The notes under the pieces were generated by a model, which did no database searches, had not been told where the DNA came from, and saw only the letters and a program-made list of their open reading frames with translations. A program made the position numbers and the translations under genes. DNA of 24,802 nt from a virus (Duplodnaviria > Caudoviricetes): positions 1-24,802 of the IMG/VR virus record IMGVR_UViG_3300037483_001077. One strand, given 5' to 3'. Each line of letters starts with the position of its first letter. Position 1 is the first letter of the stretch. Below, in pieces: positions 3,274 through 21,998 of this stretch.

Positions 3274-3276
3274 TCC

Positions 3277-3324
3277 CTAAATTCCCCGTCGCGGCCGCGC
3301 CGCCCCGCGCCTCTTGGCGGTCAT
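3277..3324 (-). CDS. Possible 15-aa basic mini-ORF (MTAKRRGAARPRRGI)
   Basis: ATGA overlap with the tail tubular A stop; ends 3 nt before the tail tubular B ATG. Near-identical to the mini-ORF at 21948..21998. Confidence 0.35.
   Translation of the reverse strand: MTAKRRGAARPRRGI
3281..3317 (-). repeat. Dispersed hairpin element, copy 1 of 3
   Basis: Minus strand AGAGGCGCGGG-GCGGC-GCG-GCCGC-GACGGGGAAT; matches copies at 18277 and 21960. Confidence 0.8.
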
Positions 3325-3974
3325 GACAGATGCGCCGTGGTCAAATCGTCGTTTGTCGCGATCGGGCTCGGCCCCGGCGAGCCGGACACATCCTGGTTGA
3401 TCGCGACCCCGACGAGCCCGCCCCTGCCGCCGAGCTCGACCGGGCCTTCGCCGCGCAGGCGCAGCTCCTCGGCGAGCCTGGCATCGCCCGCGACCGGGAT
3501 CGCGAGATCGGAGGCGATCAGAACCATCGCCGCGAGCCGGAACGACGCCGGCCACGCCGCCGGGTCGGCGCGCACCCCGACGCTCGCCCACAGCGGGTGA
3601 AAATCCGCGTACAGCCGGCCCTCCTCGAGCAGATAGTCCCTGAGCGGCGCGTGCGGCGCCCTCGGATTGGTGAGCACCCGCCTCGGCGTTCCGATCGCGT
3701 CGCCCGGCAGCTGGAAGGCGTGGCGGTAGCCGTTGCCCCAATAGTCGGTGGCGTCCCAGCCGTTCTCGGCGCTCCCGGCGATCTCGTCGAGCTTGTATGT
3801 GCGCCGGTTGAACTGCCAGGCGTGGAGCGCGAGCAGGCTGTCGCGCCGCGCCTCGTAAACCGCGTTCACCTTGCGCGCGAGCTCGGTCTCCTCGTCGAAC
3901 GCGAAAATCTCGCCGCCGCCGAACTGCGCCAGCGCGCCATTGGCGATCGAAAGCTCGTCGATCACGCTTGCCAC
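3321..3974 (-). CDS. Tail tubular protein A / adaptor (T7 gp11-like)
   Basis: 217 aa, GTG start with GAGGGAG RBS. ELSIANGALAQFG...LLALHAWQFNRR...AFQLPGD...WPASF motifs. Confidence 0.88.
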   Translation of the reverse strand: MASVIDELSIANGALAQFGGGEIFAFDEETELARKVNAVYEARRDSLLALHAWQFNRRTYKLDEIAGSAENGWDATDYWGNGYRHAFQLPGDAIGTPRRVLTNPRAPHAPLRDYLLEEGRLYADFHPLWASVGVRADPAAWPASFRLAAMVLIASDLAIPVAGDARLAEELRLRGEGPVELGGRGGLVGVAINQDVSGSPGPSPIATNDDLTTAHLS

Positions 3975-4001
3975 GGGTCAGCTCCCTCGAAAGAGTGGCA
4001 A

Positions 4002-4037
4002 CGGCGCCGCGGGGGGAGGCCCGGCCCCGCGACGCCG
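4002..4037 (-). terminator. Putative terminator/attenuator hairpin after the capsid and decoration genes
   Basis: 13-bp GC stem with one G-U pair in the minus-strand RNA and a 10-nt loop. Only a weak U tail (GTTGCCACTCTTTC). A second hairpin without a U tract lies at 4649..4673. Confidence 0.45.
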
Positions 4038-4052
4038 CCGGCCGGTCACTGG

Positions 4053-4619
4053 TCAGGCGCCGAACGCGATCCAGTTGACCTTCTTTGTGAACGTCGTCGC
4101 CGCGATCAGCGTCGCGTCGGCGTCGGTCGACTTCCAGCCCTTGATGATGACCGAGCCGGCCGCCGGCGAGCCCGCCTGGTCGCCGATCGTCGCCGAGACG
4201 TGCATCGCCCCGTCGACCGGATCGTCGTCGAGCGAGGCGACGACGGCGACGACGGTGGCGAGCCCGGTCACGACCGTGTCGGCCGCCGCGACCGTGGTGT
4301 GCTGGCCGCGCGCGACCTTGTAGTTCGCCCCGGCGATGCCGGTGACGCCGAGCTCGGCGACCACCACGTTCGACGGCGCCGCCGGGATCGAGGTCACGAT
4401 CAGGCGCGACCAGGTCGGCGTTCCGCCGACCGAGCAGATGGCATCGATCGTGTCGCCGACCTTGAACCGGCCGCGGGCCGAGTTCCAGTAGCCGGCGGCG
4501 AGCACCGCGGTGATCGCCTCCGTGGTCCGGTAAACGAAATTCGACGAGGTTCCCGAAGCGCCGGTCGCGCTCGCGGCGCCGATCGTCTGCCGGGCAAGCT
4601 GCTTTGCATTGTAGGCCAT
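4053..4619 (-). CDS. Capsid decoration/cement protein with an extra C-terminal beta domain
   Basis: 188 aa directly after the capsid gene. YRTTEAITAVLAAGYWN...KVGDTI motif; ends VNWIAFGA. Confidence 0.65.
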   Translation of the reverse strand: MAYNAKQLARQTIGAASATGASGTSSNFVYRTTEAITAVLAAGYWNSARGRFKVGDTIDAICSVGGTPTWSRLIVTSIPAAPSNVVVAELGVTGIAGANYKVARGQHTTVAAADTVVTGLATVVAVVASLDDDPVDGAMHVSATIGDQAGSPAAGSVIIKGWKSTDADATLIAATTFTKKVNWIAFGA

Positions 4620-4687
4620 GGGTCAGATCCCCTTTCGTGGTCCGGTGGCCGGCCGGGCGATGCGCCCGACCGGATGGCGCGCGCGGA

Positions 4688-5668
4688 TTACGCGCCGTCG
4701 ATGGTGAGCGCCAGATCCAGCGCCATGTGGAGGCGCCGGACGCCCGGCGTCTGGAGCACCTTGGCCGCGCCCGACATCACCGTGTTGTAGAGCCACGACG
4801 TGAACAGGTTCTCGTAGGTGATCCGCGACACCATCGAGTAGTTCGCGCCGAAGCCGAGGGTCCTGCGGTTCCACAGATACGAATAGAACTCGCCGGTCGC
4901 CGGCGAGGTGAACGCCTCGTCGGGGAGCTGGAAGTAGTGCACCCCGTTCCAGGTCTTGGCGTTCCTGCCGTTGGCGAAGGTGAGATCGGGTCCGGTGTAG
5001 TCGGCGTTGTTGAACACCTTGTACAAGTTGAGCTGTTCCCAGGAGATCGATGGCAGGGGGCAGAAGAATTCGTTCATCGACATCATGCCGATCGAGTTGA
5101 TCTGCGCCTTGGCCGTCGTGGTGTCGAGCGGCGAGATCGCCGTCGATCCGTCGCCGATGGTGGTGATGTTGGCGAGCTCGTCATCCATCGCCTGGAGGAT
5201 GATGCGGTCGAACTTGCGGCCCATCGCCATCGCGCCGGCCTCCTGGATCTGGGTCCGGAAGTCGACCGACATGCGCTCGATCTCGCCATGGCGGATGAAC
5301 TCGGCGAACTGGAAGTCCGCCATCACCACGTCCTCGGTGGTCTTGCCGAGGTTGACCGGCTGGATCATTTCGACCGTCTGCGACATTTCCGAGGCCTCGC
5401 CGCGACCGAGAATGAAGAAGCGCAGCGTGTTGCCGCGGACCTCGACCGGCGGCGTGGTGGTGCCGCGCAGGAAAAAGCCCTCGGACTGGAGAATGTGGGC
5501 GACGCGCTTGTCGTATTGGGTCGTGTACCAGTTGGGCGCCTCGAGCGAGGCGAGATAGGCGAAGCCGATGCCGCCCGCCGCATCGGGCCCCACCGCGAAG
5601 GTGAGAATGGCGGCCACGGCGACGAGGCCCGCGAAACCGAGGGCCCAGAAGCGCTGATTGGAAGTCAT
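4688..5668 (-). CDS. Major capsid protein (podovirus type)
   Basis: 326 aa, GGGAGA RBS. APNWYTTQYDKRVAHILQ, AMAMGRKFDRIILQAM, VFNNADY, TWNGVHY and MSGAAKVLQTPGV motifs. Position between scaffold module and tail tubular genes. Confidence 0.9.
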   Translation of the reverse strand: MTSNQRFWALGFAGLVAVAAILTFAVGPDAAGGIGFAYLASLEAPNWYTTQYDKRVAHILQSEGFFLRGTTTPPVEVRGNTLRFFILGRGEASEMSQTVEMIQPVNLGKTTEDVVMADFQFAEFIRHGEIERMSVDFRTQIQEAGAMAMGRKFDRIILQAMDDELANITTIGDGSTAISPLDTTTAKAQINSIGMMSMNEFFCPLPSISWEQLNLYKVFNNADYTGPDLTFANGRNAKTWNGVHYFQLPDEAFTSPATGEFYSYLWNRRTLGFGANYSMVSRITYENLFTSWLYNTVMSGAAKVLQTPGVRRLHMALDLALTIDGA

Positions 5669-5716
5669 GGCAGGTCTCCCGCCTTGAGTGTGAGTGCGAA
5701 AGCCCGCTTCAAGGCC

Positions 5717-5773
5717 GATTGCCGAGGCGCCGCCGGGTCCCCGTTCGGGATTGCCAGCCGCGGCGACGGGTCC
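5717..5773 (-). promoter_or_regulatory. Tandem GGACCCG-N10/11-GGCAATC motif in the capsid 5' leader
   Basis: Two copies (5749..5773 and 5717..5740) in the 149-nt non-coding leader. Confidence 0.55.
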
Positions 5774-5794
5774 ATCCCCTCGCGAGACGGAACC

Positions 5795-5826
5795 ACAATG
5801 ACGTGTGACGGCAGGCGTTAAACGCC
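5795..5826 (-). promoter_or_regulatory. Putative late promoter for the capsid gene
   Basis: GGCGTTTAA-N17-CATTGT. Confidence 0.7.
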
Positions 5827-7164
5827 GACGCCGGGTCCGATCCAGAGCCGGTCGTGGCGCTCGCGCTGGCCGGTCGGCTGGCCCTCGTAGGTCACCGGGA
5901 TCGCGGTGTCGGTCTCGATCGCGATCCCGATCTCCCTGAGCTTGTCGGCCGTGAGCGCGAGCGCGGTGTCGGTCTCGGCCGCGATCCCGGCGGTCAGCGC
6001 CCGGACATGGAGCGCGGGCTGCGCGGTATCGGCCTCGACGGCGATGGCGATCGCCAGTTCCTTGACCGCGGTCACCGGCTGGGCGGCGTCGGTCTCGGCC
6101 GCGAGGCCGGGCTCGCGCGACTTGGCCGCGATCACCGGCTGGGCCGTGTCGGTCTCGGCCGCCTGGCCGATCGGGGTGCCGAACGCCGGGGTCACGGCGA
6201 AGGCCGTGTCCACCGTTCCCGGCAGCGCGATCTCCTTGAGCTTGTCGCGGCCGAGGGCATTGGCGGTGTCGGTCTCGAGCGCCTGGCCGATCAGCGTTCC
6301 GACAACGACAGTGAACGCGAACGCGCTGTCGACCTCCACCGCGAGACCCGCCTCGCGCGACTTGAGCGCGGTCGCGGCCTGGGCGCTGTCCACCTCGGCC
6401 GCGAGCCCGACCTCACGGGTTTTCAGCGCGGTCACCGAGCCGGCGGTGTCGGTCTCCGTCGCAAGCCCGACCGGCGTTCCGCCGCCCGCCGTATCCTCGA
6501 ACGCGGCCAGCCAGCAGATGGCCTCGTGGCCGCTGCCGCTCCAGCCCAGTGACGTGGATTTCACCCCGGCCGCCTGCCCGGCGGCGGCAAAATCGATCAA
6601 ATGCGCGATCCCGTTGTCGCCGCCCTGCGCAGTCACACCGCCGCTGGTCAGTGGCGATGCGAGCGGTCCAGCCCCGAAGCCGCCGAGGGTTTGCATCCGC
6701 CAGCATCCGCCGCCGATGAGCAGCAGATCGCTCGACGCGATCGAGCCGGTGTTGCCGCTGCCCAGAGGGGATGAAGATCCGGTGCCGGAGTTGGCGCTTT
6801 TTGCTCCGGCGACTCCGAATGTGTAGGCCCCGTCCGGCGCGTATTCGACGACCGTGAGCCGCTTGCTGTTAGTAGTACCGTCATCGCCGGAGAACGTATC
6901 CGGCGTTGATGCGGTGACCGGCTTCCACCACACCGAGCAGGACTGTCTGGCGTTCGCGTCGGCGAGTTCTTGATCATTCGACGCGTCGGCGATCTTGGTC
7001 CAGCCGCCCTCGGTATCCTCCAGCACGTGATCGGCATGAGCGGTGCCGGCGCGCTGCGACAGGACACCGATGAGGAGGTTCCCCTCGGTCGGCGCGGCAC
7101 CAAGCGTCACTGCCGCCGGATCCGCGAAATTGGACGCCGACTGGACTTTCGAGAACGTGGTCAT
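5818..7164 (-). CDS. Head-fibre/spike-like structural protein: N-terminal beta-rich domain plus repeat stalk
   Basis: 448 aa, Ala/Thr/Gly-rich. Ten exact-period 20-aa repeats in the C-half. Lies in the cassette with the spike-base gene. Confidence 0.7.
   Translation of the reverse strand: MTTFSKVQSASNFADPAAVTLGAAPTEGNLLIGVLSQRAGTAHADHVLEDTEGGWTKIADASNDQELADANARQSCSVWWKPVTASTPDTFSGDDGTTNSKRLTVVEYAPDGAYTFGVAGAKSANSGTGSSSPLGSGNTGSIASSDLLLIGGGCWRMQTLGGFGAGPLASPLTSGGVTAQGGDNGIAHLIDFAAAGQAAGVKSTSLGWSGSGHEAICWLAAFEDTAGGGTPVGLATETDTAGSVTALKTREVGLAAEVDSAQAATALKSREAGLAVEVDSAFAFTVVVGTLIGQALETDTANALGRDKLKEIALPGTVDTAFAVTPAFGTPIGQAAETDTAQPVIAAKSREPGLAAETDAAQPVTAVKELAIAIAVEADTAQPALHVRALTAGIAAETDTALALTADKLREIGIAIETDTAIPVTYEGQPTGQRERHDRLWIGPGVGV
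5869..6468 (-). repeat. Ten tandem 60-nt (20-aa) degenerate coding repeats
   Basis: Consensus G[LQI]AxE[TV]D[TS]Axx[VL]TAxKxxxx. GTGTCGGTCTC or a variant recurs every 60 nt without indels. Confidence 0.92.
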
Positions 7165-7430
7165 CCGACCATCGAAATCGAGAACGGAAAGATAATGGTC
7201 CCCTCGCGGTCGCGCGTCGCCACCATGCCACGGCTAGCCAGGTCCGTTTTTCTGGTGTCCGTCGGATCGATATCGATGCGCGCGCGGGACGGGTGCCTCA
7301 CCAGTTGCGACGTGCCCCGCGTTGTCTCGTTGGCGCTGTCGGCGCTCACGATTTCGAGCGTCACATCATCATAGGTGACGGATAGTGTCCGCGTCCCATG
7401 CGCGTGGATGACCTGTCTGACCAGCGCCAT
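7161..7430 (-). CDS. Hypothetical protein (fibre accessory?)
   Basis: 89 aa, ATGA overlap with the fibre gene. Confidence 0.65.
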   Translation of the reverse strand: MALVRQVIHAHGTRTLSVTYDDVTLEIVSADSANETTRGTSQLVRHPSRARIDIDPTDTRKTDLASRGMVATRDREGTIIFPFSISMVG

Positions 7431-7442
7431 GGATCGGCCGGC

Positions 7443-7778
7443 TCACGCCGGCAGGAAGCCCCTGATCCGGGCGTAGTGGCCGCGCGCCTCCTTGCCCTGC
7501 GAGGCGCGCGCGGTGCCGCGGCCGGGCCGGTAGGTCTTCTGGGCGAACTTGGCCGCCCTTGTCATCTTGATTTCGAGCCCGCCCGGCCCCATCGCCGCCT
7601 GGATGTCGAGCTTGATCGCCTGATAGGCGACCTCGAGCCAGTATTTGTCGAGCCTGGCCTCGCCGACGCCGAGCTCCTCGAGCCACGCGGGATAGGCGGC
7701 CGCCGAATCGACGATCACCCGGCGCGGGTTGTTGGGGTCGATCGCCGCCCACTTCGGGAGCTGGATCACTCGGGCCAT
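7443..7778 (-). CDS. Hypothetical protein
   Basis: 111 aa, AAGGAG RBS, fits the operon. Confidence 0.75.
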   Translation of the reverse strand: MARVIQLPKWAAIDPNNPRRVIVDSAAAYPAWLEELGVGEARLDKYWLEVAYQAIKLDIQAAMGPGGLEIKMTRAAKFAQKTYRPGRGTARASQGKEARGHYARIRGFLPA

Positions 7779-7793
7779 GGCGGCTCCTTTCGT

Positions 7794-8225
7794 TCAGGCC
7801 GCGCGGGCGAAGCCGGCGGCGTTGATCTGGAGCGTCACGTCCGAGCCGTCCGGCGTGATCGCGAAGTCGTGATGGGTGAGCGGGACGCGGGTCGTCTCGG
7901 CCGCCGCGTTCTCGTAGGCGACGATCGCCTTGGTGATCGCCGCGCCGGCGAGCGCCGTCCATGTCTGGTCGGGAATGTCGACATCGACCCGATCGTTGGT
8001 GTCGTCGACCGTGACGGTCCCGCTGATGCCCGTCTTGCGCGCATAGGAGGCATCCACCGCCTCGGTGTTGCCGGCCGCGCCGAGCAGCGCGTCGAGCTCG
8101 TCGTGATCGACGAGCGCCGCCTCGGCCTCGTTGGCGGTCAGGAGCAGCACGATCCCGTTGGCGGCCGCGTCGCGGAACATCTCGGCGAACGCGCCCTTGG
8201 CAATGTTGAACACGCCGTCGGCCAT
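7794..8225 (-). CDS. Small structural protein of the type that precedes repeat fibres (fibre base/adaptor-like)
   Basis: 143 aa, GAGGAG RBS. MADGVFNIAKG...YARKT...VDDTNDRVDVDIPDQTWTA...PLTHHDFAITPDGSDVTLQINAAGF, a pattern I associate with minor structural proteins of actinobacterial and other phages. Confidence 0.6.
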   Translation of the reverse strand: MADGVFNIAKGAFAEMFRDAAANGIVLLLTANEAEAALVDHDELDALLGAAGNTEAVDASYARKTGISGTVTVDDTNDRVDVDIPDQTWTALAGAAITKAIVAYENAAAETTRVPLTHHDFAITPDGSDVTLQINAAGFARAA

Positions 8226-8235
8226 GTTGGTCTCC

Positions 8236-8559
8236 TCAGTAGCCGTGAATCTCGATATCGCTCGATGTGCCGGTCGCCCACACCCGCCGCGCCGTCACCG
8301 GCTCGGTCCACAGGCCGGGCGGAAACGTCAGCGTGATATCGTCCTCTCCGGCGTCTCGCCCGATCGGCGTCAGCTTCACCGTCCCGACGCCCCCGGTGAC
8401 GGCGTCCGGCACGAACACCCGGAGCGACTTGGCGTGCTCGGCGAGATCGGTGGTATCGGATCTGAGGTCGGTCGCGCCCTTGAGGATCGTGATCGGCGTC
8501 AGCGACGGCGCCGCCGCCACCATCGCCGCCTCGCCGGTGTGATATCTGTCCTTCGGCAT
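8236..8559 (-). CDS. Head spike base protein, RcGTA Rcc01079-like
   Basis: 107 aa. SDTTDL...KSLRVFV...GTVKL...ITLTFPPG...PVTARRVWATGTSS.IEI matches the family's P-V-x-x-x-R-V-x-A-T-G-T C-terminal signature. Confidence 0.7.
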   Translation of the reverse strand: MPKDRYHTGEAAMVAAAPSLTPITILKGATDLRSDTTDLAEHAKSLRVFVPDAVTGGVGTVKLTPIGRDAGEDDITLTFPPGLWTEPVTARRVWATGTSSDIEIHGY

Positions 8560-8585
8560 GGCTATCGCCTTTTGGGTCCGGCCCT

Positions 8586-8617
8586 AGAATGTCCGCCGCG
8601 GGCGGGCGTTAAACGCC
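8586..8617 (-). promoter_or_regulatory. Putative late promoter for the spike cassette
   Basis: GGCGTTTAA-N17-CATTCT, inside the palindrome GGCGGGCGTT-A-AACGCCCGCC. Confidence 0.7.
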
Positions 8618-11582: not shown

Positions 11583-11583
11583 G

Positions 11584-13865: not shown

Positions 13866-14077
13866 CGCCCTGCCCCCTTGAGATCGAGCTCGCGGCAGAC
13901 CGCCATCGCCCAGTGGGCGGCGAGCTGCATCCGCGCGCACGCTGGCCGGTCCGTGGTACGGCTGCATACGCAGTTGTTGACCCCGTCGATCGCCGAGCAG
14001 ATCACCACAGCAATCCGATCGACCGGATCGGCGTGAAAATCCGGCGGTTTTCGCGCTTTTTGCGTTTTCCGCCTCAT
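13862..14077 (-). CDS. Small Cys-rich hypothetical protein
   Basis: 71 aa with 5 Cys, ATGA-coupled to terL. Start uncertain. Confidence 0.5.
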   Translation of the reverse strand: MRRKTQKARKPPDFHADPVDRIAVVICSAIDGVNNCVCSRTTDRPACARMQLAAHWAMAVCRELDLKGAGR

Positions 14078-14377
14078 TTCCGGCGCCCCCGACCCCGGTC
14101 AGGCTCGATTTTCGCCGTGGCCCCCGGACCCCGTCATTGGTGAAAATTCGTTCCAAAAGGCGACCTCCCACCCAGGCAAGCGTGAAATCGGCCGTGTGTG
14201 TGAGAAGGGACCCCCCTATGGGGGTGGACCGCGGCGGTTTTTGACCCCCCGGCCCGCCATGCGGCCCGGATCGGCCGGCCGGCCGGCCGGCGCCGGGGCC
14301 GAGCGGCGAGGAGGGCCGAGGCCGTCCGAGGCAACTGATTTCCAATCAGTGGCCGCGCCGGGATTTCGCGTGCGAGA

Positions 14378-15055
14378 TCAATCGCTTGCGTCATCGTGCG
14401 ACTTTCCATCGTGCGACTTCGCCGCGCCCGCGCCCGGCGTCACGTCGATAACTCCTTGATTTGCCTCGACATCCTCGATCGAGCGCGATCCGGCGTTGAT
14501 CGTCACCCGATCGGCCCGGCCGAACGCGATCACCGGCGTCACCGGCACGCCCTTATCATCTGTCGTGGCGCGCCTGGAGTGCAGATAGGGCATCGCCTGG
14601 CCACGGCAGTCGCGCTGCCACCGCGCCAGGTCCATCACGCTCGCCTCCAGCTTGAGGCCGCGATCTGAGGCGATGGTCCGCATCTCCGTGATCAGCTCGC
14701 CGAGCGGCATGGTGCCGATCGCCACGTCCGCCTCCAGCGGATCGCCGTAGCGCTCGATCAGCGCCACCGCGACCGTCTCGGTCCTGATGTTGCGAGCGCC
14801 CTTCGGCCTCCCCGGACCCCGACGTGAGGAGAGCAATTTCCCGGCCCGCGCGCCTCCAGGCAGACCGATCGCGCTGGCCACCAGTCCGCCGGCCGCGCGC
14901 CGGCGCTCCAGCTCGTCGCCGATCGCGAGCTCGGGCTCGGCCGGCTCGCCCGCCTGTGAGCTCCCACTCCCGCCGGTCCCGGCCCTGTCATCGTCCATCG
15001 CGCGCAGATCCTCGATATTTAATCCGTCAGCGGCCGCCTGGTCGCTTCCAGGCAC
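14378..15055 (-). CDS. Probable terminase small subunit
   Basis: GPGRPKGARN and AMPYLHSR motifs, C-terminal VIDVTP, first gene of the late region. Start codon uncertain. Confidence 0.7.
   Translation of the reverse strand: MPGSDQAAADGLNIEDLRAMDDDRAGTGGSGSSQAGEPAEPELAIGDELERRRAAGGLVASAIGLPGGARAGKLLSSRRGPGRPKGARNIRTETVAVALIERYGDPLEADVAIGTMPLGELITEMRTIASDRGLKLEASVMDLARWQRDCRGQAMPYLHSRRATTDDKGVPVTPVIAFGRADRVTINAGSRSIEDVEANQGVIDVTPGAGAAKSHDGKSHDDASD
14449..14461 (-). promoter_or_regulatory. IHF consensus site
   Basis: AATCAAGGAGTTA is an exact match to WATCAANNNNTTR, at the 3' end of the terS-like gene. Confidence 0.6.
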
Positions 15056-15063
15056 CAGCGGCC

Positions 15064-15297
15064 GGTTATAAGTTCTAACCGCTTACAACCGAAATCTAAC
15101 CACGTTTCTGCAACAAAAACATACACTTAGACGAAAAGGTTAGAAGTTATAAGATATTACCGCATCCCTTACGCGCGCGGCCGCGCGCGCGTCACGCGAG
15201 GCCATCGCGTCCAACCTCTAACCTAACCATCTAAGTCATTGAAAAACCTCGGAAAACACGGTTATAAAACGGTTGTAAGCGGTTAGAACTTCCAACC
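15064..15297. repeat. AT-rich dyad-symmetric region, probable replication origin
   Basis: Perfect 22-bp arms (15070..15091 and 15270..15291), a central 18-bp palindrome (15172..15189) and many CTAACC/GGTTAG-type hexamers, all centred on 15180.5. Confidence 0.75.
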
Positions 15298-15326
15298 GCG
15301 TCCAATCGCTCGCTCGAATGCCTGGC

Positions 15327-15358
15327 AGCGTAGGTCCGGACCGGGCGACTTAAACGCC
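15327..15358 (-). promoter_or_regulatory. Putative late promoter upstream of terS
   Basis: GGCGTTTAA-N17-TACGCT. Confidence 0.7.
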
Positions 15359-15467
15359 CATAACAGGGTCGGGGACCGGGCCTTGCCTCGCGCCGGCCAG
15401 GGGCGCGGCGCCGCGCGGTCAGCCGAGCCCTCGCGCGCCCTGCGCCTCGCCATGGCGATGAGCGGGG

Positions 15468-15647
15468 CTAGGCGTGGCGGGGAGCGGCCTCTATCGCCTC
15501 GCACAAGAGCTCGATCGATCGCGGAATTTCGATCCGGCCGGTCTCGTAGCGGCTGATCATGGTCCAGTGCCGGCCGAGCCGCTCGGCCGCCTCGGCCTGG
15601 GTGAGACCGAGGCGGACGCGCCAGAGGGTGAGGTCGTGGGCGGTCAT
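15468..15647 (-). CDS. XRE-family HTH protein, 59 aa (absent from the ORF track)
   Basis: Translated by hand: MTAHDLTLWRVRLGLTQAEAAERLGRHWTMISRYETGRIEIPRSIELLCEAIEAAPRHA. ATG immediately follows the upstream TGA. Confidence 0.88.
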   Translation of the reverse strand: MTAHDLTLWRVRLGLTQAEAAERLGRHWTMISRYETGRIEIPRSIELLCEAIEAAPRHA

Positions 15648-16016
15648 TCAGGCGGCCACCACCGAGCGCAAGAGCTGGCTCATCTCCGGTGTCAGGTCGT
15701 GGCGTGGGCTCGCGGTCCCGGCCCACGCGTGGTAGGCATCGCTCAGGTCTCTGTGCTCCATCTGCGAGCGGTCGGCGGCGGGCGGAAGGGGAGTATGAGG
15801 CATGCCCTTCCTTGCGTATTTTTCGATCTGATCGGCAGCGTGGCGGTCCTGTCCCCGGCGAATTCTTTCATCACGCAGCCATTTCTGGTGGCGCTGCTGT
15901 ATCTCGCGCCGTATCGCCGCGCCAGCGGCTTGCACCTGTGCGGGCATGGCGTGGATGTCGGGCTGGCAGGGTGCCGAGAAATCCACATGAATGCTCTGGA
16001 TGCGGTATTGGGTCAT
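15648..16016 (-). CDS. Hypothetical protein (moron)
   Basis: 122 aa, GGAG RBS, starts 3 nt after the upstream stop. Confidence 0.7.
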   Translation of the reverse strand: MTQYRIQSIHVDFSAPCQPDIHAMPAQVQAAGAAIRREIQQRHQKWLRDERIRRGQDRHAADQIEKYARKGMPHTPLPPAADRSQMEHRDLSDAYHAWAGTASPRHDLTPEMSQLLRSVVAA

Positions 16017-16019
16017 GAT

Positions 16020-16337
16020 CTACTCCGTCTCGATCGGGGTGGCGGTGATGATGTGCGTCGCCCTCCCGTCGCGATTGTCCTCGACCTCGGCGTAGTCGCC
16101 GGCAATCTGGTAGAAGACGCGACCGGCATAGCGCTCGACCTCGGTAATGGTCGCGGTGCGGTGATGAGGGACCCCGCTTGGCTCCCAGATGGAGCTGTCG
16201 CGGCGATAGCTCCCGAGGTGCTCGGTGACACGGACGGTAGCGCCGACCCGCAGCGGCTCCATGTCCGCAGGCATCGAGCGCGCGGCGACGTAGCGGTCCC
16301 ATTTACGCTGGATGCCACTCATGATCTCGTCGGTCAT
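16020..16337 (-). CDS. Hypothetical protein, possible SH3/KOW-like beta barrel (moron)
   Basis: 105 aa, strong AGAGGAG RBS, LRVGATVRV...ATITEV pattern. Confidence 0.75.
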   Translation of the reverse strand: MTDEIMSGIQRKWDRYVAARSMPADMEPLRVGATVRVTEHLGSYRRDSSIWEPSGVPHHRTATITEVERYAGRVFYQIAGDYAEVEDNRDGRATHIITATPIETE

Positions 16338-16364
16338 CTGTCTATCTCCTCTATCGATGATCGC

Positions 16365-16393
16365 AATATAGCACCACGCTATGCGCCCGGCAA
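16365..16393 (-). promoter_or_regulatory. Sigma70-type promoter of the moron
   Basis: TTGCCG-N17-TATATT. Inverted repeat ATAGC-N5-GCTAT (16368..16382) overlaps the spacer and -10. Confidence 0.7.
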
Positions 16394-16410
16394 TGCGTAA
16401 TGCTTAAATA

Positions 16411-16426
16411 TGTGATGTGGATCACA
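16411..16426. promoter_or_regulatory. CRP/FNR-family box
   Basis: TGTGATGTGGATCACA = TGTGA-N6-TCACA. Confidence 0.55.
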
Positions 16427-16434
16427 ACCGGCCA

Positions 16435-18270
16435 TCACCCCTCGTCCCCCGCGATCTCGTCGTAGCGGGCGAGGTCGACGAGGAGGCAGTGCGCCGCCAC
16501 CCGGTTGATCTTGACCACCCTGTAGCCATCCCTGACCGCCCCGTCGTGGACGCCCTGCCTCAGGCTAGACCACCAGCCGCCGTCCTGCCAGCGCGAGCCC
16601 TGATAGAGCCGGCCGAGCGAGGGCGACGAGCGCGGCACCGCGAGCAGGTACCGCCGCTCGCCATGGGCCCCGCCCTCCGGCCGTTCCTCGACCAGGCCGA
16701 GCCCCGCGGCCGCCAGCCGGTTGCGGATGAACTTGAGATCCGTCTCGTCGATCTCGTCGAGCACCGCGCCCACGGTCGGCTTCTCGCCCGACTTCCAGGC
16801 GTCGATGGTCGAGCCTAGGACATGTTCGAGGCACGTCCGCCAGTTGGGCTGCTGGGCCGCGCGGTCGGTCCTGGTCGCCGCCGCCACCGCCTCGCCGACG
16901 CGCGCGGCGTCCGTCACCGGCAGGCCGGCGTCCTCCATGATCTCGGCCCCGAGCATCAGCTCGGCGATCGCGAACAGCGTCCCCCAGGTGTCCTGCTGGC
17001 GGCCGTCGAGACCGGCCTGCTTGAGGTTGACGCGCCAGTCGCCCAGCATGTGGTCGAACTCCGGCCAGGCGTCCATCAGCGCCCTCAGGATCATCCGCCC
17101 GGCGTCGGGCTCGATCCTCGGCGGCTCGCCCACGTCGGCGAGCTGGTCGAGATCGAGCAGCGCGAACCGCGACCGGTCCTGCGGGCGCATCGGCGGCGGG
17201 ATGATCCCGGTCATGAAGAACGCCGAGCGCGCCTGGAACTCCACCCCCTTGTGGTCGGCGCCGCCGCGCCAGTGGCGCGCGCCCGACGAGGCGAGCCGGG
17301 CGAGCTCGATGATCGCCTCGACCCGGCGGTTGTCGGCGCTCGCCTCCATCTCGTCGACCGCCACCGGCAGCGTGTCGAGGCCGAGGCGTTGCCTCACCCC
17401 CGCCTCGGTCGTGTTCGCCGCGTCATGGAGCGCGGCGCCGAGAACGGCCTTGACCAGGCGTTGCAGCTCGGTCTTGCCGGTCTTCTGGTCGCCGGCGACG
17501 AACAGGTGCGGCCGCCATGGCAGGGCGCCGCCGATGAGCATCGCGCCGAGCGCGCCGACCACGATCACCGGGTCGACGCCCGGGCGGCCCCAGGACCACG
17601 AGGTGAGCGCGGTGAAGATCTCCCGCGCCGGGTTGTCCTCGGCCGGCACCGGCTCGAGCCACGGCACGATGGTCAGCGGCCGCGCCGGGTAGAACAGGCC
17701 GTCGATCTCGCCCGGCGGCGCGTGCTGGAGCCTCGCGCCCCTCCCGTCCGGCACCACCGTCCACAGCCCGTCGCCCGAGTGCCAGATCAGCCGGCCGTGA
17801 TCGTCGACCCAGGCGCCGCGCCCGCGCACCCGGTCGATCGGCTGGAACAGGCCGCGCCCGGCCGCGGCCTTGACCAGGCACTGGGCGGCGTCGTCCGCCG
17901 CGATCCCGGTGATGACGAAATCGTCCTTCGACTTCGCCCATTTCGGCCACGCCCACTCGAGGAAGTTGGGAGTGAGGGCGAACAGATCGATCAGGATCTT
18001 CTTGCCCCATTCGTTCGACGTCACCGGAATGAGCTGGCCGAGGGTGTCGACGAAGTAGCTGATCTTGCCGTCCTTGCCGAGCGGCTGCACCGGGCAGCCC
18101 GGCGGCAGCCGGTCGACCGGATGGCCCGGCCACTGGCCGGCGAGCACCTTGTCGCCGCCGACCTCGCGCCCGCCGATCGCCGGCGGGTCGTCGATGGCGG
18201 TTTGCCTGTCGAGCTCGGCGCGCGCGTCGCAGAACGCGGCGCGCACCCGGCCCGGCCCCTTGCGAGCCAT
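16435..18270 (-). CDS. P-loop NTPase, probable replicative helicase/origin-binding protein
   Basis: 611 aa. Walker A GDQKTGKT, Walker B VAVDEME, RGRGAW, TTEAGVRQ and QDRSRF (Arg-finger-like). Downstream of the primase. Confidence 0.8.
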   Translation of the reverse strand: MARKGPGRVRAAFCDARAELDRQTAIDDPPAIGGREVGGDKVLAGQWPGHPVDRLPPGCPVQPLGKDGKISYFVDTLGQLIPVTSNEWGKKILIDLFALTPNFLEWAWPKWAKSKDDFVITGIAADDAAQCLVKAAAGRGLFQPIDRVRGRGAWVDDHGRLIWHSGDGLWTVVPDGRGARLQHAPPGEIDGLFYPARPLTIVPWLEPVPAEDNPAREIFTALTSWSWGRPGVDPVIVVGALGAMLIGGALPWRPHLFVAGDQKTGKTELQRLVKAVLGAALHDAANTTEAGVRQRLGLDTLPVAVDEMEASADNRRVEAIIELARLASSGARHWRGGADHKGVEFQARSAFFMTGIIPPPMRPQDRSRFALLDLDQLADVGEPPRIEPDAGRMILRALMDAWPEFDHMLGDWRVNLKQAGLDGRQQDTWGTLFAIAELMLGAEIMEDAGLPVTDAARVGEAVAAATRTDRAAQQPNWRTCLEHVLGSTIDAWKSGEKPTVGAVLDEIDETDLKFIRNRLAAAGLGLVEERPEGGAHGERRYLLAVPRSSPSLGRLYQGSRWQDGGWWSSLRQGVHDGAVRDGYRVVKINRVAAHCLLVDLARYDEIAGDEG

Positions 18271-18276
18271 GGTTGC

Positions 18277-18310
18277 ATTCCCTGTCGGAGCTTCGCTCCT
18301 CCACGCCTCT
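18277..18310 (-). repeat. Dispersed hairpin element, copy 2 of 3
   Basis: Minus strand AGAGGCGTGGA-GGAGC-GAA-GCTCC-GACAGGGAAT, ending 6 nt before the helicase ATG. Confidence 0.8.
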
Positions 18311-18350
18311 CGTGGGCGAGGGCGAAAAAGGTCCTATGGTGAAACGCCGG

Positions 18351-18740
18351 TCACTTGCGCGGCCTGGCTGGCCTCGGCCGCGCCCGCGGCCGCTTCGCCA
18401 GCGCCTTGCGCCTGAGCTGGGCCTCGACGCCCTCGCGCGCGACCCGCTCGGCCAGCGTCGGCAGCCCCCGGTGGTGGAGGTCGGTGTTGCTGGTGCGCAG
18501 GGTCTCGCGCATCATCGCGGCGACGACGTTGCCGGCCGCCGCCATCGGCTCGGCCGCGGCCGGCGCCGGCGGCGCCGCGAGCTCGCCCTTGGGCGGCGGC
18601 GCCGGCTTGCCGAGATCGACCCGGTCCCCGAGCCCGTCGGCCGGCTCGATCGCGCGCTCCATCCGCGCCGAGGCTGTCCTCACCGTCTCCCGCGATGGCT
18701 GCTGGGGCTCGCCGCGCACCCGTCCGTCGTCGCCGCTCAT
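18351..18740 (-). CDS. Hypothetical protein with a basic C-terminus
   Basis: 129 aa from ATG 18740, ATGA-coupled to the DHH gene. Confidence 0.6.
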   Translation of the reverse strand: MSGDDGRVRGEPQQPSRETVRTASARMERAIEPADGLGDRVDLGKPAPPPKGELAAPPAPAAAEPMAAAGNVVAAMMRETLRTSNTDLHHRGLPTLAERVAREGVEAQLRRKALAKRPRARPRPARPRK

Positions 18741-19636
18741 GCCGGCACCCGGAAGCCGGCTGCGTTTCGATGCCCGCCGCCGCCGAATTGGCGCGCGACC
18801 TTGCTCACGTCCTCGCGGCCGTCCTCGGACCTCAGCGAATACGTCCTGGCGCCGAAGCTGTGGTACCAGACGGCCGCAAAGGCGGCGCTGCTGTCGCGTT
18901 GCAGGAGCTCGTGGCCGACGTCCGACGCCATGAACCATGGGGCGTTGACGACGGGCACCAGGTGCGGACCGATCCTTCCAGGCACCGCCGCATCGCACAC
19001 CTCGGCGATCTTGCGATCATAGAAGCGCTCGATCGCGTGCGCCTCGGCGAGCACGTTGGCGCGGTCGCCGCCGATGTCGTCGAACGCGCGCATCAGATCG
19101 TCCCACACCTCGAACTCGTAAGGGAAGGACCGCAAGAGCAGCGACAGCGGGCGGGTGTGCTCGTGCGGATGCTTCACCCAAAGATCGCGCTCGGCGATGT
19201 GGCGTATCAGCTTCGGCGCGGGATCATCGGGGAAGCAGAACGCCCACGTCAGCTCGGCCCCGCACTGCTCCATATCGAAAGTGGCGAACACCGCGGGGTC
19301 ACCGTGGTCGAGATAGCTGACCGCCTCGCCGGCCGTCTTGACCGAACCCTGGAAAACCGAAACATGCGCAAGATCCTCAGCCGCCGTCTTGTGGTGGTCG
19401 AGGATGAAGATCGACCGCGCCTCATCGGCCATCGCAGCCAATACGTCCGGCTTGAACGAAAAATCGGCGATCAGCACGTCCTTGCCGGCGAGGTCGATGT
19501 CGAGCGGCTGGCCGTAGTTGCGCCCGGCGAACAGAACCTCGCCCGGCCACTTGCGATTAACCACCCACGCTGCCGCAAAGCCGTCGTCGCAGGGGAAATG
19601 GTGAATGCATATGTCCGGCTTCCAAGTCATTGTCAT
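18737..19636 (-). CDS. DHH/DHHA1 phosphoesterase
   Basis: 299 aa from ATG 19636 (GGAGGAG RBS). HFPCDDG, ADFSF, LDHHKTA, RDLW, YSLRS and GGGGHRNAAGF motifs. Confidence 0.93.
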   Translation of the reverse strand: MTMTWKPDICIHHFPCDDGFAAAWVVNRKWPGEVLFAGRNYGQPLDIDLAGKDVLIADFSFKPDVLAAMADEARSIFILDHHKTAAEDLAHVSVFQGSVKTAGEAVSYLDHGDPAVFATFDMEQCGAELTWAFCFPDDPAPKLIRHIAERDLWVKHPHEHTRPLSLLLRSFPYEFEVWDDLMRAFDDIGGDRANVLAEAHAIERFYDRKIAEVCDAAVPGRIGPHLVPVVNAPWFMASDVGHELLQRDSSAAFAAVWYHSFGARTYSLRSEDGREDVSKVARQFGGGGHRNAAGFRVPA

Positions 19637-20742
19637 GTCTCCTCCTTCACCAGATCGTTGAAATCGTTGACGCCGGCTCCGGCGGCCATCGCCGCCACCG
19701 GCTTGCCGTGGCGGGCGAGCCCGGCGCGCGTCGCCTGGCGCCGCTCGGCCGCGGCGGCGCCCTTGTCGTTGTCCTCGGCGACGATCACCCGCTCGATCGC
19801 GGGATGGTCGACATAGGCGTTCTGGATGTTGCCGGCGCTTGCGGCCGCGGCGACCCGCGCCTCCGGCGCCGCCAGCGCCACGGTCAGCATGGTCTCGATC
19901 CCCTCGCCGATGATCCAGTCCGAGAGAACGCCGTTCTCCGCCGCCTCCTCCATGGTGAGCCCGTCCGCCCCCATGGCGAGCCGGATCACCGCGCCGCGGA
20001 CCTCGCCGTACATCAGTTTTGCCTCCGGCACGTCCGCCTTGCCGGTCCCGTCGTGCCTCAAAAAGGTGCAATGGACGGCGGTGATGTCGCCGGCGCGGTT
20101 TCGCATCGCGCCCACCATGGCCGGGAACGACGGCCCCGGCTCGGCCTTGATCCTCGCCCCGTCCGGGCGGACCTCCCACCTCGCCCCCTTCCACCATTCG
20201 AGCCGGTCGCAGAACCTGAGATCGCCTTCCGGGTGTTTGAGCGCCACCCAGGCGATGCCGCGCCTTGCGAGATAGACCTCGGCGAGCGAGCCCTCGATCG
20301 GCTCCCGCGCCCTCGTCCACAACCGCATCGCCGCCCGGCGCTTTTTCGCCGCCCGCTCGCTCGCGGCGTGGAGCTCCTCGCGCGCCCGCCGTCTCGCGCG
20401 GCTCTTGGCCCGGGCGAGATCGTCGGCGCCCATCTGGCGGACGCCGAGAAAGTCCTCGGCCCAGCGCAGCGCGAACGCCCTGTTCTGTCCGTGCACATAG
20501 GCGATGAGGTCGATCACGTCGCCCTTGGCCGCGCCCCGCGGCGAGTACTCGCAGAAGCCTCCCGTCGCCGGTCCGGTCATCCAGATCACGAACGATCCGG
20601 GCCGGCGGTCGTCGCGGGTCGGATTCCGCGGCGTGAACACCGGGCCGGCCGGGATCCGCTCGCCCGGGAACAGCCTGGCGCACAAGGAGCGCACCTGTCC
20701 CTGGAGCATGTCGCGGATCTGGCGCGGCCCGGCGCGGTTCAT
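19633..20742 (-). CDS. Toprim DNA primase (P4 alpha/DUF7146-like)
   Basis: 369 aa. KGDVIDLI, AEVYLARRGI, AVHCTFL...GKA...AKLMYG, GEGIET, AEDND and NDFND motifs. Confidence 0.9.
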   Translation of the reverse strand: MNRAGPRQIRDMLQGQVRSLCARLFPGERIPAGPVFTPRNPTRDDRRPGSFVIWMTGPATGGFCEYSPRGAAKGDVIDLIAYVHGQNRAFALRWAEDFLGVRQMGADDLARAKSRARRRAREELHAASERAAKKRRAAMRLWTRAREPIEGSLAEVYLARRGIAWVALKHPEGDLRFCDRLEWWKGARWEVRPDGARIKAEPGPSFPAMVGAMRNRAGDITAVHCTFLRHDGTGKADVPEAKLMYGEVRGAVIRLAMGADGLTMEEAAENGVLSDWIIGEGIETMLTVALAAPEARVAAAASAGNIQNAYVDHPAIERVIVAEDNDKGAAAAERRQATRAGLARHGKPVAAMAAGAGVNDFNDLVKEET

Positions 20743-20747
20743 CGGAC

Positions 20748-21173
20748 CTAAGCCGCCTCCCGCCGGCCGGGCGCGCTCTCGTCCTCGTCGGCGAGGAAGG
20801 CCCAGGGAGGCAGGAACACGATCAGGGCGTCGCCCTCGACTTTCGAGACACAGCGCGTCGACTTGAACGTGTCATCCGGGGCGAATTCCGGCTCTCCCAG
20901 ATTGACCCGCAAGGTCAAGGTTTCCCGATTCCGGGGCGCGGAAAGCACTTGGGGCTTGAAGGCTCCGTCGTCCTTCACCGCGACGCGAAGCGTGCCGCGA
21001 TCCTCGCCCCGGCCGATGGCGATCTCCAGCGGCGCGCCGGTCTTGGCGACCGGCGGCAGGAACTCGGCCGGGATGTTGAGGCTCACCGCCATGCCGGCCC
21101 TGACTTCCTTCGCCGACATCGTGACGCACCGCGGATTCTCCGCCGGCGGCGCCTCGAGCGCCTCGAAGCTCAC
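20748..21173 (-). CDS. Hypothetical protein
   Basis: 141 aa, GTGA overlap with the upstream gene, GGAGAGG RBS. Confidence 0.75.
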   Translation of the reverse strand: MSFEALEAPPAENPRCVTMSAKEVRAGMAVSLNIPAEFLPPVAKTGAPLEIAIGRGEDRGTLRVAVKDDGAFKPQVLSAPRNRETLTLRVNLGEPEFAPDDTFKSTRCVSKVEGDALIVFLPPWAFLADEDESAPGRREAA

Positions 21174-21568
21174 GGCGCCTCTCCGCCGCCGGCGGCCCGC
21201 GCGGCGGCGGCGCGCTCGCGCTCCCGGTCCGCCGCCCAGCCGTCCGGGTCGCGGACCTTCTTCATGCCCCCGGTCGTCGCCCTGAGGAAGAAGGTGAGCC
21301 CGTTCGGGTTCCGCTCGACGGTGGCGAGGCCGTCGGCGGCGAGGTCGTCCGCGAGCACGAGCTCGTAATCGATGTCGGCGCCGCGCCGCGGCCGGTAGGT
21401 GCCCTCGGCGACCGCGCGGCGGAGCATGTCGTCCTTCGTTTTCGTCGTCGCGTCCGCCGGCTCGGGCCCGGCCGCGGTCTCCGTCGCGGCCGGCTCGGGC
21501 CCGGCCGCGGTCTCCGTCGCGGCCGGCGCGGCCGCCGCGGACTGCTTTTTGGGTCGTCTCGCCATCAT
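21170..21568 (-). CDS. Hypothetical protein
   Basis: 132 aa from ATG 21568 with AAGGAGAG RBS. Confidence 0.7.
   Translation of the reverse strand: MMARRPKKQSAAAAPAATETAAGPEPAATETAAGPEPADATTKTKDDMLRRAVAEGTYRPRRGADIDYELVLADDLAADGLATVERNPNGLTFFLRATTGGMKKVRDPDGWAADRERERAAAARAAGGGEAP
21456..21527. repeat. Perfect 33-nt tandem duplication (about 2.2 copies)
   Basis: GCCGGCTCGGGCCCGGCCGCGGTCTCCGTCGCG x2, encoding a repeat of ATETAAGPEPA. Confidence 0.95.
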
Positions 21569-21591
21569 GTCTCTCCTTTGCTGGCGGGTGG

Positions 21592-21951
21592 TCAGTCGGG
21601 AAGAATGAGCCCGGCCGCGGTCTCGCGCCGCGGCGCGAGCTCGGACAGGACGTTCAGGTGGATCAGCGACATCACCTGGGTGGCGACCCGCCGCCGGTCG
21701 CCGTCGCCGATCGCGGCGCCGACCATCTGGGTGACGAGGTTGGCCGCCGCGCCGGCGAGCGCGTGAAGGAGATGGGGCGCCGGCGTCGCCCGGTCGCGCT
21801 CGTCCTCGAGGATGTCGACCACGACCGGCATCAGCGCCAGCATCGCCCGGGCCTGGGCGCCCTCCGCCGTTCCCGGCCTCAGCGCCGCCTCGGTCCTCAG
21901 CCGCGGCTCGATCCGCTCCCATTCATTCCTCAGTGGATGGCGCATGGTCAT
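21592..21951 (-). CDS. Hypothetical helical protein
   Basis: 119 aa, fits the early operon. Confidence 0.7.
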   Translation of the reverse strand: MTMRHPLRNEWERIEPRLRTEAALRPGTAEGAQARAMLALMPVVVDILEDERDRATPAPHLLHALAGAAANLVTQMVGAAIGDGDRRRVATQVMSLIHLNVLSELAPRRETAAGLILPD

Positions 21952-21998
21952 TTTTTGTGTCCCTGTCGCGGCTTCGCCGCTCCGCGCCTCTTGGTCAT
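21948..21998 (-). CDS. Possible 16-aa basic mini-ORF (MTKRRGAAKPRQGHKK)
   Basis: ATGA overlaps at both ends and a GGGGGA RBS. Confidence 0.45.
   Translation of the reverse strand: MTKRRGAAKPRQGHKK
21960..21994 (-). repeat. Dispersed hairpin element, copy 3 of 3
   Basis: Minus strand CCAAGAGGCGCGGA-GCGGC-GAA-GCCGC-GACAGGGA. Confidence 0.8.

Follow-up and report, generated by a model that had tools for sequence, protein, structure and literature searches.

The three hairpin-bearing sites in this phage very probably arose by insertion of a short and polar alphaproteobacterial repeat of REP-like type, a piece of selfish mobile DNA that is kept in front of start codons by a tail resembling a Shine-Dalgarno (SD) sequence. 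A reading of these sites as a phage regulatory element does not stand. Repeats of the general class (REP/RPE-like) are already known; no published description of this family was found in Rfam or in literature searches, in which Di Nocera et al. (2013, PMC3733652) was compared by its text, apart from the consensus figures.

The three phage copies and their family

The window (the whole 24,802-nt stretch of phage DNA that was analysed) holds three copies of the repeat, all on the minus strand and in the same orientation (Table 1). The sequence-only reading had placed them correctly and had correctly reported their stems, GCGGC/GCCGC twice and GGAGC/GCTCC once, as well as the GCGAAGC present in two of them (copies 2 and 3). 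Its 34-nt element holds as a core but not in length, for the copies start at CAA (3316, 18312 and 21993) and carry an additional tail of 8-12 nt. A covariance model (CM) found no fourth copy in the window, where its next-best match scored 11.2 bits; the three copies belong to the training set of the model, and their 48.7-66.5 bits show only this absence. The copies were absent from the 20 largest families returned by a repeat finder in the window, an Rfam search of the window gave no family for the element, and a pattern count allowing three mismatches was at chance level (11 vs 8.2) and was not taken as support.

Table 1. Copies of the repeat in the window, with the mini-ORFs that cross them and the genes downstream (CM, covariance model trained on a set that includes these copies)
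Feature	Position	Strand	Remarks
Copy 1 core	3283..3316	-	CAAG 5' end, left arm, 5-bp stem with GCG loop, right arm to GGGGA; CM 48.7 bits
Copy 1 stem-loop	3291-3303	-	Stem GCGGC/GCCGC, loop GCG
Copy 1 tail/spacer	3274..3282	-	9 nt from GGGA to ATG (3273)
15-codon mini-ORF across copy 1	3277..3324	-	Starts in ATGA overlap with stop of tail tubular A-like gene
Tail tubular protein B-like gene	826-3273	-	Downstream of copy 1; PHROG 376 tail protein
Copy 2 core	18279..18312	-	CGAG start variant; CM 55.4 bits
Copy 2 stem-loop	18287-18299	-	Stem GGAGC/GCTCC, loop GAA
Copy 2 tail/spacer	18271..18278	-	8 nt from GGGA to ATG (18270)
611-aa primase/helicase-like gene	16435-18270	-	Downstream of copy 2; PHROG 21086 and 35358
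Copy 3 core	21960..21993	-	CM 66.5 bits
Copy 3 stem-loop	21968-21980	-	Stem GCGGC/GCCGC, loop GAA
Copy 3 A-rich tail/spacer	21952..21959	-	8 nt from GGGA to ATG (21951)
16-codon mini-ORF across copy 3	21948..21998	-	ATGA overlaps at both ends, with upstream stop and with 119-aa gene
119-aa gene	21592-21951	-	Downstream of copy 3; no PHROG match

The family has the form CAAGAGGCGNGGAG-hairpin-CGACAGGGA followed by a variable A-rich tail, about 42 bases in all. Two invariant purine arms enclose an exchangeable hairpin, which ranges from 9 to >100 nt across the family and spans 13 nt, with a 5-bp stem, in 92 of 106 among the matches listed; the first stem pair is G-C in 78 of 82. The covariation that had been suspected from the window alone is real. 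In matches collected with the stem positions free in the search pattern, all four free pairs survive in 81 of the 91 unique cores from metagenomes, whereas shuffling gives 13.5 on average and 25 at most; among the 51 unique viral cores the count is 38, against a shuffled mean of 3.9 and a maximum of 12. Two free stem pairs are kept in 60 of 60 among the matches listed, a list that includes the three window copies and four near-identical duplicates. The loop has 3 nt. Of 205 unique cores, 148 show GNA there when read on the purine strand and 2 the reverse-strand form; about 18 of the cores came from a first pattern that fixed the loop G. In the tail, A makes up 44-73% of the bases at 8 of the first 10 positions, and all four bases occur. 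An extension of the stem through a Y-R pair at positions 10-30 was rejected (kept in only 40 of 82), as were, from the sequence, a kink-turn (no 3-nt bulge register) and an intrastrand triplex (no pyrimidine tract on the purine strand).

The repeat was found in 35 of 301 genomes of one order and in 4 of 151 genomes across the phylum, with a reversed-pattern control of 0 in each case. There are 46 loci in species genomes, with record titles that in every case name Alphaproteobacteria, their orders or families, or "Proteobacteria," as well as 62 viral loci and about 560 metagenome stretches. The hosts include free-living Hyphomicrobiales and Rhodospirillales, together with their plasmids and phages. 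CM matches per host genome range from 4 to at least 90, two metagenome-assembled genomes (MAGs) holding at least 84-90 copies, and several prophage-like regions carry many (L643, L645). Copies lie in host tRNA-synthetase, thiC, and uvr genes, and both orientations occur. The linked host MAG (G001, 2.3 Mb, of unstated completeness) has no copy outside the phage contig, an annotated phage collection gave no convincing copy, and Rfam gave no family for the repeat at 15 host loci. In one genome (G004), copies flank a non-coding repeat of about 460 nt, of which no longer coding version was seen among 11 matches. In substance, then, the element proved to be the REP-like host repeat that the sequence-only reading had set against its own proposal, but it could not be matched to a described family.

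Empty alleles and the sites that are kept

Filled and empty alleles with flank identities reaching 95-98% overall were found at three sites. A DEAD-type helicase gene of other phages is filled in L091, L118, and L134 (97-98% flank identity to empty alleles) and has a 6-nt empty form in 116 of 120 loci. The terL/head-tail junction is filled in L108 and L111 (96-98% identity to empty alleles) and has a gap of 0-3 nt in 120 of 120 loci, as seen with a pattern that could detect only gaps of up to 30 nt. In a plasmid methylase-helicase gene, alignment of four filled with three empty records gives a net insert of 39 nt. The insert has a precise CAAG end and a ragged tail of 8-12 nt, and 0-6 nt of the target are lost. 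There is no target duplication at these three sites; flank repeats of 4-5 nt show a slight excess (18 of 127 vs 8.7 shuffled), and no conserved target tetranucleotide was found at the sites examined. Empty alleles, arrays, and in-frame copies in unrelated genes thus support the tiny mobile repeat that had been one option of the sequence-only reading.

At the three phage sites themselves, where no empty allele of this phage was seen and the relatives that lack the repeat share only 31-40% protein identity, we infer insertion from the behavior of the family. In two distant relatives the gap between tail genes A and B measures -1 and +3 nt; here, where it contains copy 1, it is 47 nt. Copies 2 and 3, the only two examined in reads, are retained by strains of about 99% identity in four DNA runs, and no listed joint skips either copy in these runs, whose contigs drop rare variants. 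No RNA run was listed among those that contain the phage. The mini-ORFs across copies 1 and 3 may, to judge from their overlaps, provide translational coupling over the insert. A pattern search of viral contigs found no relative of the 203-aa gene upstream of copy 3.

Of 167 contexts, 46 (about a quarter) have an ATG that follows GGGA by 5-12 nt, vs about 20 in control windows, and the distances peak at 8 nt (18 contexts) and 9 nt (11 contexts). These contexts remained of 247 after those with less than 60 nt of flank or with another copy next were dropped, and the ATG count includes homologous sites, so that its entries are not independent. That the element always abuts a ribosome-binding site is consequently true of the three window copies but not of the family, in which 121 of the 167 contexts have no ATG at this distance. 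The link to ribosome-binding sites is real and is best read as a survival filter. However, the phage carries its three copies within 25 kb, each ending 8-9 nt short of an ATG, which is denser and more uniform than the family average, so that some co-option is possible.

Within genes, the repeat is in frame at 44 of 116 metagenome loci (40 sense, 33 in the QEA frame), where gene calls were made with a simple codon model. Sixteen of the 44 lie in UvrB, UvrA, DnaE, methyltransferase, or helicase genes, and in-frame copies also occur in dnaG. After removal of 26 duplicate, homologous, or unpaired loci before orientation and context were counted, copies are oriented with transcription at about 3:1 between genes and 10:1 inside genes. 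Adjacent head-to-tail pairs number 59, with spacers of 5-16 nt, and 19 of them combine different stems; arrays reach 6 units, with stems and tails mixed within them.

Regulatory and copying alternatives

The sequence-only reading had offered a translational operator, a nut/boxB-like antitermination site, and a single-strand priming signal, and the distribution of the repeat speaks against all of them. It gave no match in 10 related phage loci (134 kb), the relatives of this phage being distant (31-44% protein identity); those relatives that carry it (L129, L081) do so at other positions, L129 with three copies at the 3' end of its helicase gene; and the copies in host housekeeping genes lie in both orientations. 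An operator, at which a phage or host protein would bind the RNA hairpin by the SD and co-regulate the three genes, possibly through co-opted mobile copies, accords with the uniform spacing before ATG, shared with the family peak, and with the fold of the purine strand as RNA (-10.9 to -14.0 kcal/mol with tandem G.A pairs). It is nonetheless improbable, given that the three genes belong to the early, middle, and late classes and have unrelated functions by PHROG annotation, that most family contexts lack an ATG at this distance, that GGGA lies outside the 5-bp stem and the SD is not hidden by the hairpin, and that position at the same genes, in particular upstream of their homologues, is not conserved among these distant relatives. 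A boxB hairpin has a 5-nt purine loop, and a nut site, with boxA, stands just after early promoters. The short hairpins seen here, all pointing in the direction of transcription in a phage of temperate type that has a repressor/cro-like pair, recall such a system; however, their loop is 3 nt, their stem varies freely, they stand at 3.3, 18.3, and 22.0 kb with none right after the divergent early promoter region near 23770-23880, and family members often lie in host genes and in the antisense direction, which leaves antitermination barely conceivable.

A priming or replication signal for the phage primase (ssi-like) would draw on the GNA mini-hairpins present at the primase sites of phage G4 and plasmid ssiA, as excerpts of PMC13037366 describe them, on the primase and primase/helicase-like protein that this phage encodes (PHROG annotation), and on the wealth of copies in the prophage-like regions. 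This is highly improbable in view of the copies in host tRNA-synthetase, thiC, and uvr genes and of positions that are not conserved in related phages. Orientation agrees with the replichore in one chromosome (G003), where all 8 of the 8 loci that could be assigned have the purine strand as lagging-strand sequence, and is mixed in another (G002), with skew taken from 20-kb samples only. Also considered was an RNA intermediate or partly untemplated copying, a SINE-like route that would create the polar A-rich tail. The precise 5' end, ragged 3' end, and mixed tail, the orientation bias, and the arrays with mixed stems and tails are compatible with it, but selection on SD supply and reading frame accounts for the bias, target duplication is not consistent, the GNA bias of the loop points to DNA, and no reverse transcriptase stands among the neighboring proteins and commonest neighbor families described below, so that this route is very improbable.

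Movement and relation to known repeats

The search for a mobilizing enzyme covered the neighbors of the repeat and candidate genes elsewhere in the genomes. Pfam applied to 115 neighbor proteins revealed no recurring nuclease and no reverse transcriptase, and the 25 commonest families among 150 further neighbors were housekeeping, again without reverse transcriptase (117 singleton families fall outside this list). Among the 115, one Mu-type transposase lies about 290 nt from a copy in a phage. Genes for Y1_Tnp, GIY-YIG, DUF559, PDDEXK_3, and 23S_rRNA_IVP were sought in 5 to 10 genomes. No Y1_Tnp was found in 8 of 10 element-bearing genomes, five element-rich ones among them (2 of 5 and 0 of 5 positive), most being MAGs of unstated completeness, and 0 of 9 Y1_Tnp loci were flanked by the repeat. 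The 35 candidate-enzyme loci yielded one weak full-length CM match (L673, 18.9 bits), and at L675 a divergent copy adjoins a second GIY-YIG gene. Since both lie within CGTC-REP clusters, their nearness to candidate enzymes is no more than a hint. In twenty stretches where copies are paired or arrayed, the enclosed genes are housekeeping or prophage genes, as read from translations rather than from a library scan.

In the model that we favor, mobile repeats under selection, the repeat probably travels in the form of a folded single strand of DNA, assisted by a host enzyme. Its working form would be single-stranded DNA, because the loop is mostly GNA, a DNA mini-hairpin loop, on the purine strand only. 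The two invariant arms would serve as tags by which a trans-acting enzyme recognizes the repeat, for no such enzyme is encoded next to the examined copies. Selection would then act on where copies land, retaining those at gene junctions that gain a new SD, with GGGA and the A-rich tail acting as a replacement ribosome-binding site upstream of start codons, and those in surface loops that tolerate the hydrophilic QEA...ATG reading frame. The phage would have picked up its copies while resident in an alphaproteobacterial host.

The ends of GTAG REPs and of IS200-IS605 elements have a subterminal hairpin near a fixed tetranucleotide end, a strand-asymmetric fold, and no target duplication. In the repeat, too, about 9 nt separate the hairpin from a fixed tetranucleotide end (CTTG, pyrimidine strand), the fold is strand-asymmetric, and no consistent target duplication is seen, but in alignment it lacks a GTAG tag at the stem base, and it flanks none of the 9 Y1_Tnp loci found, unlike REP/RAYT systems. 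RPE-1, a Rickettsia palindromic element (RPE), is about 150 nt long; the repeat is much shorter and its hosts are free-living, which sets it apart by description. Like the repeat, which is also inserted in frame in functional protein genes, RPEs lie in frame in housekeeping, repair, and tRNA-synthetase genes and are presumably translated, according to the text of PMC3733652. MITEs, as that text has them, are non-coding, dispersed, often beside coding sequences, and 70-300 bp long; the repeat is similarly non-coding and dispersed, often near coding sequences, but it is shorter, has no terminal inverted repeats (its ends are CAAGAGG and an A-rich tail), and shows no consistent target-site duplication.

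The closest comparison is with the CGTC-tagged REPs, which the text of Di Nocera et al. (2013, PMC3733652) describes as alphaproteobacterial, 20-40 bp long, with a covarying stem and no dedicated transposase, and in frame in repair and replication genes. The repeat shares their hosts, size class, covarying stem, in-frame repair-gene copies, and lack of a linked transposase. Its pyrimidine strand begins TGTC/CGTC and has a TCCN tail: on the plus strand, CGTC (copy 1) or TGTC (copies 2 and 3) stands directly before the stem, although many family members read GGTC, and the tail is CCCG, TCCA, and TCCG in copies 1, 2, and 3, followed by a further conserved 10 nt. However, the same text defines a CGTC-REP by an unpaired CGTC (or TGTC/CCTC) tag, an 8-9 bp stem from AT, a 4-5 nt loop, and a CCA tail, and reports mostly head-to-head dimers, with head-to-tail dimers negligible and clusters rare. 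The repeat has a 5-bp stem from G-C, a 3-nt loop, two long invariant arms, a variable A-rich tail, and, in a count confined to that orientation, frequent head-to-tail arrays. Of 43 loci, 8 have a CGTC-type hairpin no more than 150 nt away, vs 1 of 36 control stretches. Taken together, the repeat works like REP/RPE elements but fails the CGTC-REP family definition.

There is a small chance that the family is instead an undescribed bacterial short interspersed element with its own copy-and-paste chemistry, an exchangeable hairpin, and a fresh, partly random A-rich tail, as long as a ribosome spacer, for each copy. If so, it would act both as a ribosome-binding site that travels and as a stop-free peptide cassette, and would in this way cancel its own harm, give rise to new start codons, and insert loops into DNA-repair enzymes in Alphaproteobacteria and their phages. 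Under the favored reading as a REP-like mobile repeat, the family offers something rare among its kind, namely cleanly paired filled and empty alleles from the phages and plasmids of rhizobia that can be cultured; therefore, the movement of REP-like repeats without a linked transposase, a question posed in the text of PMC3733652, becomes testable. The repeat invades phage genomes, apparently buffered by its built-in SD and open reading frame.

Insertion into empty sites

At three sites, alleles carrying the element can be set beside empty ones, and the element is therefore an insertion. In the DEAD-type helicase gene of other phages, three filled loci (L091, L118, L134) have flanks 97-98% identical to empty alleles, with an insert of 42 nt net, in frame; at a terminase/head-tail junction, the filled alleles (L108, L111) are 96-98% like empty ones, and their GGGA lies 8 nt upstream of the ATG. 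A 6-nt empty form was seen in 116 of 120 loci at the helicase site and a gap of 0-3 nt in 120/120 at the junction, counts that show empty alleles to be common but give no filled fraction, as both patterns saw short gaps only. At the third site, a plasmid methylase-helicase gene, some rhizobial plasmids contain a net insert of 39 nt that is absent from others. At all three sites, CAA is part of the element and tails vary from copy to copy; the target loses 0-6 bases and shows no duplication; a bulk test for 4-5 nt flank repeats gave a small excess (18/127 versus 8.7). Thus, of the options raised by the sequence-only reading, a tiny mobile repeat is the one borne out. The same helicase loop is filled in L079, L091, L095, L118, L127, L134, and L179; since these phages are 66-84% alike and their tails differ, while 97-98% relatives are empty, repeated insertion events or spread by recombination are suggested. 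Two loci hold decayed remnants starting with CAAG.

The same reading had also proposed a translational operator, a nut/boxB-like site, or a single-strand priming signal. Strains ~99% alike do retain copies 2 and 3. However, ten loci of related phages that share this gene set (protein identity 31-40%; 134 kb) contain no match to the element, and other relatives carry it elsewhere: L129, whose helicase is 44% identical, bears three copies at the 3' end of that gene, a position without copies in the window, and L081 has one directly upstream of its terminase gene. Although the relatives are distant, this comparison of sequences argues against a conserved phage signal of any of the three kinds. 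Taken as a whole, the mobile-insert reading is, in our judgment, probable.

Anatomy, relatives, and a putative route of movement

The element consists of CAAGAGGCGNGGAG, a hairpin, CGAC(A/C/G)GGGA, and an A-rich tail. Most hairpins measure 13 nt, but some exceed 100 nt and still close at the same point. Head-to-tail arrays occur with spacers of 5-16 nt, and stems differ in 19 of 59 adjacent pairs. When the pattern leaves four stem pairs free, 38 of 51 unique viral cores are fully paired (shuffled mean 3.9), as are 81 of 91 metagenome cores (shuffled mean 13.5, maximum 25). Among 82 distinct copies, changes on both sides are present at all five stem pairs, and slid controls collapse; the shuffle ignores relatedness. 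The covariation first noticed in three copies is real, and the stem is kept as structure. Of 205 unique cores, 148 have a GNA loop and 2 the reverse-strand form. Given that GNA loops yield exceptionally stable DNA mini-hairpins (PMC13037366), this bias suggests that the purine strand folds as single-stranded DNA.

A strict pattern finds 4 viral loci and 46 loci in species genomes, the latter titled Alphaproteobacteria, subgroups thereof, or 'Proteobacteria'; looser patterns find 62 viral loci and an estimated 560 metagenome stretches. The pattern is present in 35/301 genomes of one order and 4/151 across the phylum (reversed controls, 0). Each host genome yields between 4 and at least 90 covariance-model matches, the upper figure being a lower bound with 150 candidates scored per genome. 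Prophage-like early regions (L643, L645, L099/L115-L117), with 4-6 copies per few kb in both orientations, look like hot spots. In genome G004, a non-coding repeat of ~460 nt, present in ~10 copies, partial or complete, that are 82-100% identical, often has outward-facing copies of the element at its ends and often a repeat-rich protein gene upstream; Rfam offers no match for it, and a coding version was not seen.

The element works like the REPs and Rickettsia palindromic elements (RPEs) of one review (PMC3733652). With the alphaproteobacterial CGTC-REPs described there it shares a YGTC tag, the absence of a transposase, and a preference for repair genes, but stem length, loop, and arrangement differ and place it outside that family; nor was it found in four supplements. 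No Rfam family matches it, and no published description turned up in paper listings that cover few subscription papers, including by literal-motif search. By Rfam and these listings, the family appears undescribed so far within the REP/RPE-like class. Rhizobia and Caulobacter have repeats of their own, RIME and CIR.

In the proposed mechanism, the element is non-autonomous and REP-like and would move as a folded single DNA strand, acted on in trans by a putative enzyme; on insertion its CAAG end is precise and its tail end ragged. No recurring nuclease or transposase family was found among neighbours. Searches in 10 element-bearing genomes yielded no Y1 transposase in 8, and those present flank no copy; the element likewise does not flank the DUF559, PDDEXK_3, and four-helix-bundle genes examined. 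CGTC-type hairpins are often around copies (8/43 loci versus 1/36 controls). Because each of two short GIY-YIG genes has a divergent copy close by, both within CGTC-REP clusters, shared use of the CGTC-REP machinery is our favoured candidate for the enzyme, though the odds are low.

The phage and its copies

Nearly all genes of this 24.8-kb virus record are on the minus strand, and they include a repressor/cro-like pair, primase, DHH phosphoesterase, a 611-aa primase/helicase-like protein, terminase, major head, and two tail tubular-type proteins. Over ~15 kb, the record is 99% identical to a 32-kb contig of an Alphaproteobacteria MAG (G001, which carries the three phage copies only), so the window most likely represents a temperate, podovirus-like phage of this class. 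The three copies are present with the stems and loops originally described. A covariance model finds no fourth in the window (48.7-66.5 bits for the three, which belong to its training set, versus 11.2 for the next). The contig pile-up in the cro-like ORF is what another dispersed repeat family would produce. The near-palindromic repeats could mark an origin.

Coordinates of the element and of other features
Feature	Position	Strand	Remarks
Copy 1	window 3283-3316	-	GGGA end 9 nt before ATG, tail tubular B-like
Copy 2	window 18279-18312	-	8 nt, primase/helicase-like
Copy 3	window 21960-21993	-	8 nt, 119-aa gene
448-aa protein	window 5818-7164		PHROG 14065, unknown function
~Nine 60-nt (20-aa) repeats	window 5890-6462		within 448-aa protein
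Lower-GC stretch	window 15070-16430		between helicase and small-terminase regions; three small genes, one HTH
Near-palindromic repeats	window 15070-15290
Sigma-70-like promoter match	window 16393-16365		sole match within 14000-24802; in lower-GC stretch
cro-like ORF	window 23411-23767
7-nt repeat run	window 23420-23480		3' part of cro-like ORF; pile-up of many unrelated contigs
Element, L088 and L107	~1490-1540		after stop/start overlap; new ATG 7 nt past GGGA
Early region, L643	G202:C11:59800-63200		prophage-like
G004 repeat	L052 2362-2826; L053 2594-2967; L574 7593-8338		~460 nt

Landing sites and the ribosome-binding site

Our own simple gene caller puts 44 of 116 metagenome loci inside genes, 40 in sense orientation, and 33 are read as QEA...ATG. 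Pfam assigns 16 of the 44 to UvrB (6), UvrA (2), DnaE-type (2), DNA methyltransferase (2), and helicase (4), a raw tally in which recurring sites may be inherited; further targets are ThiC, tRNA synthetases, and tail proteins. In three genomes (L648, L655, L656), UvrB-like proteins have long N-terminal extensions that contain one to three copies in frame.

At copy 1, 47 nt separate the two tail genes in the window, whereas in two relatives the distance is -1 and +3 nt, so the copy takes up almost the entire gap. Mini-ORFs of 15 and 16 codons run from an ATGA overlap across copies 1 and 3 and may keep ribosomes coupled across the insert; in L088 and L107, a mini-ORF similarly crosses the element. 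The claim that the element always abuts a ribosome-binding site stands for the three window copies but not for the family, where 46 of 167 contexts, some homologous, have an ATG 5-12 nt past GGGA (~20 in control windows; peak, 8-9 nt). The link is nevertheless real, although it covers about a quarter of copies. It is most simply read as a filter: where the genome is compact, an element inserted just ahead of a start codon persists if it supplies an SD and spacer itself.
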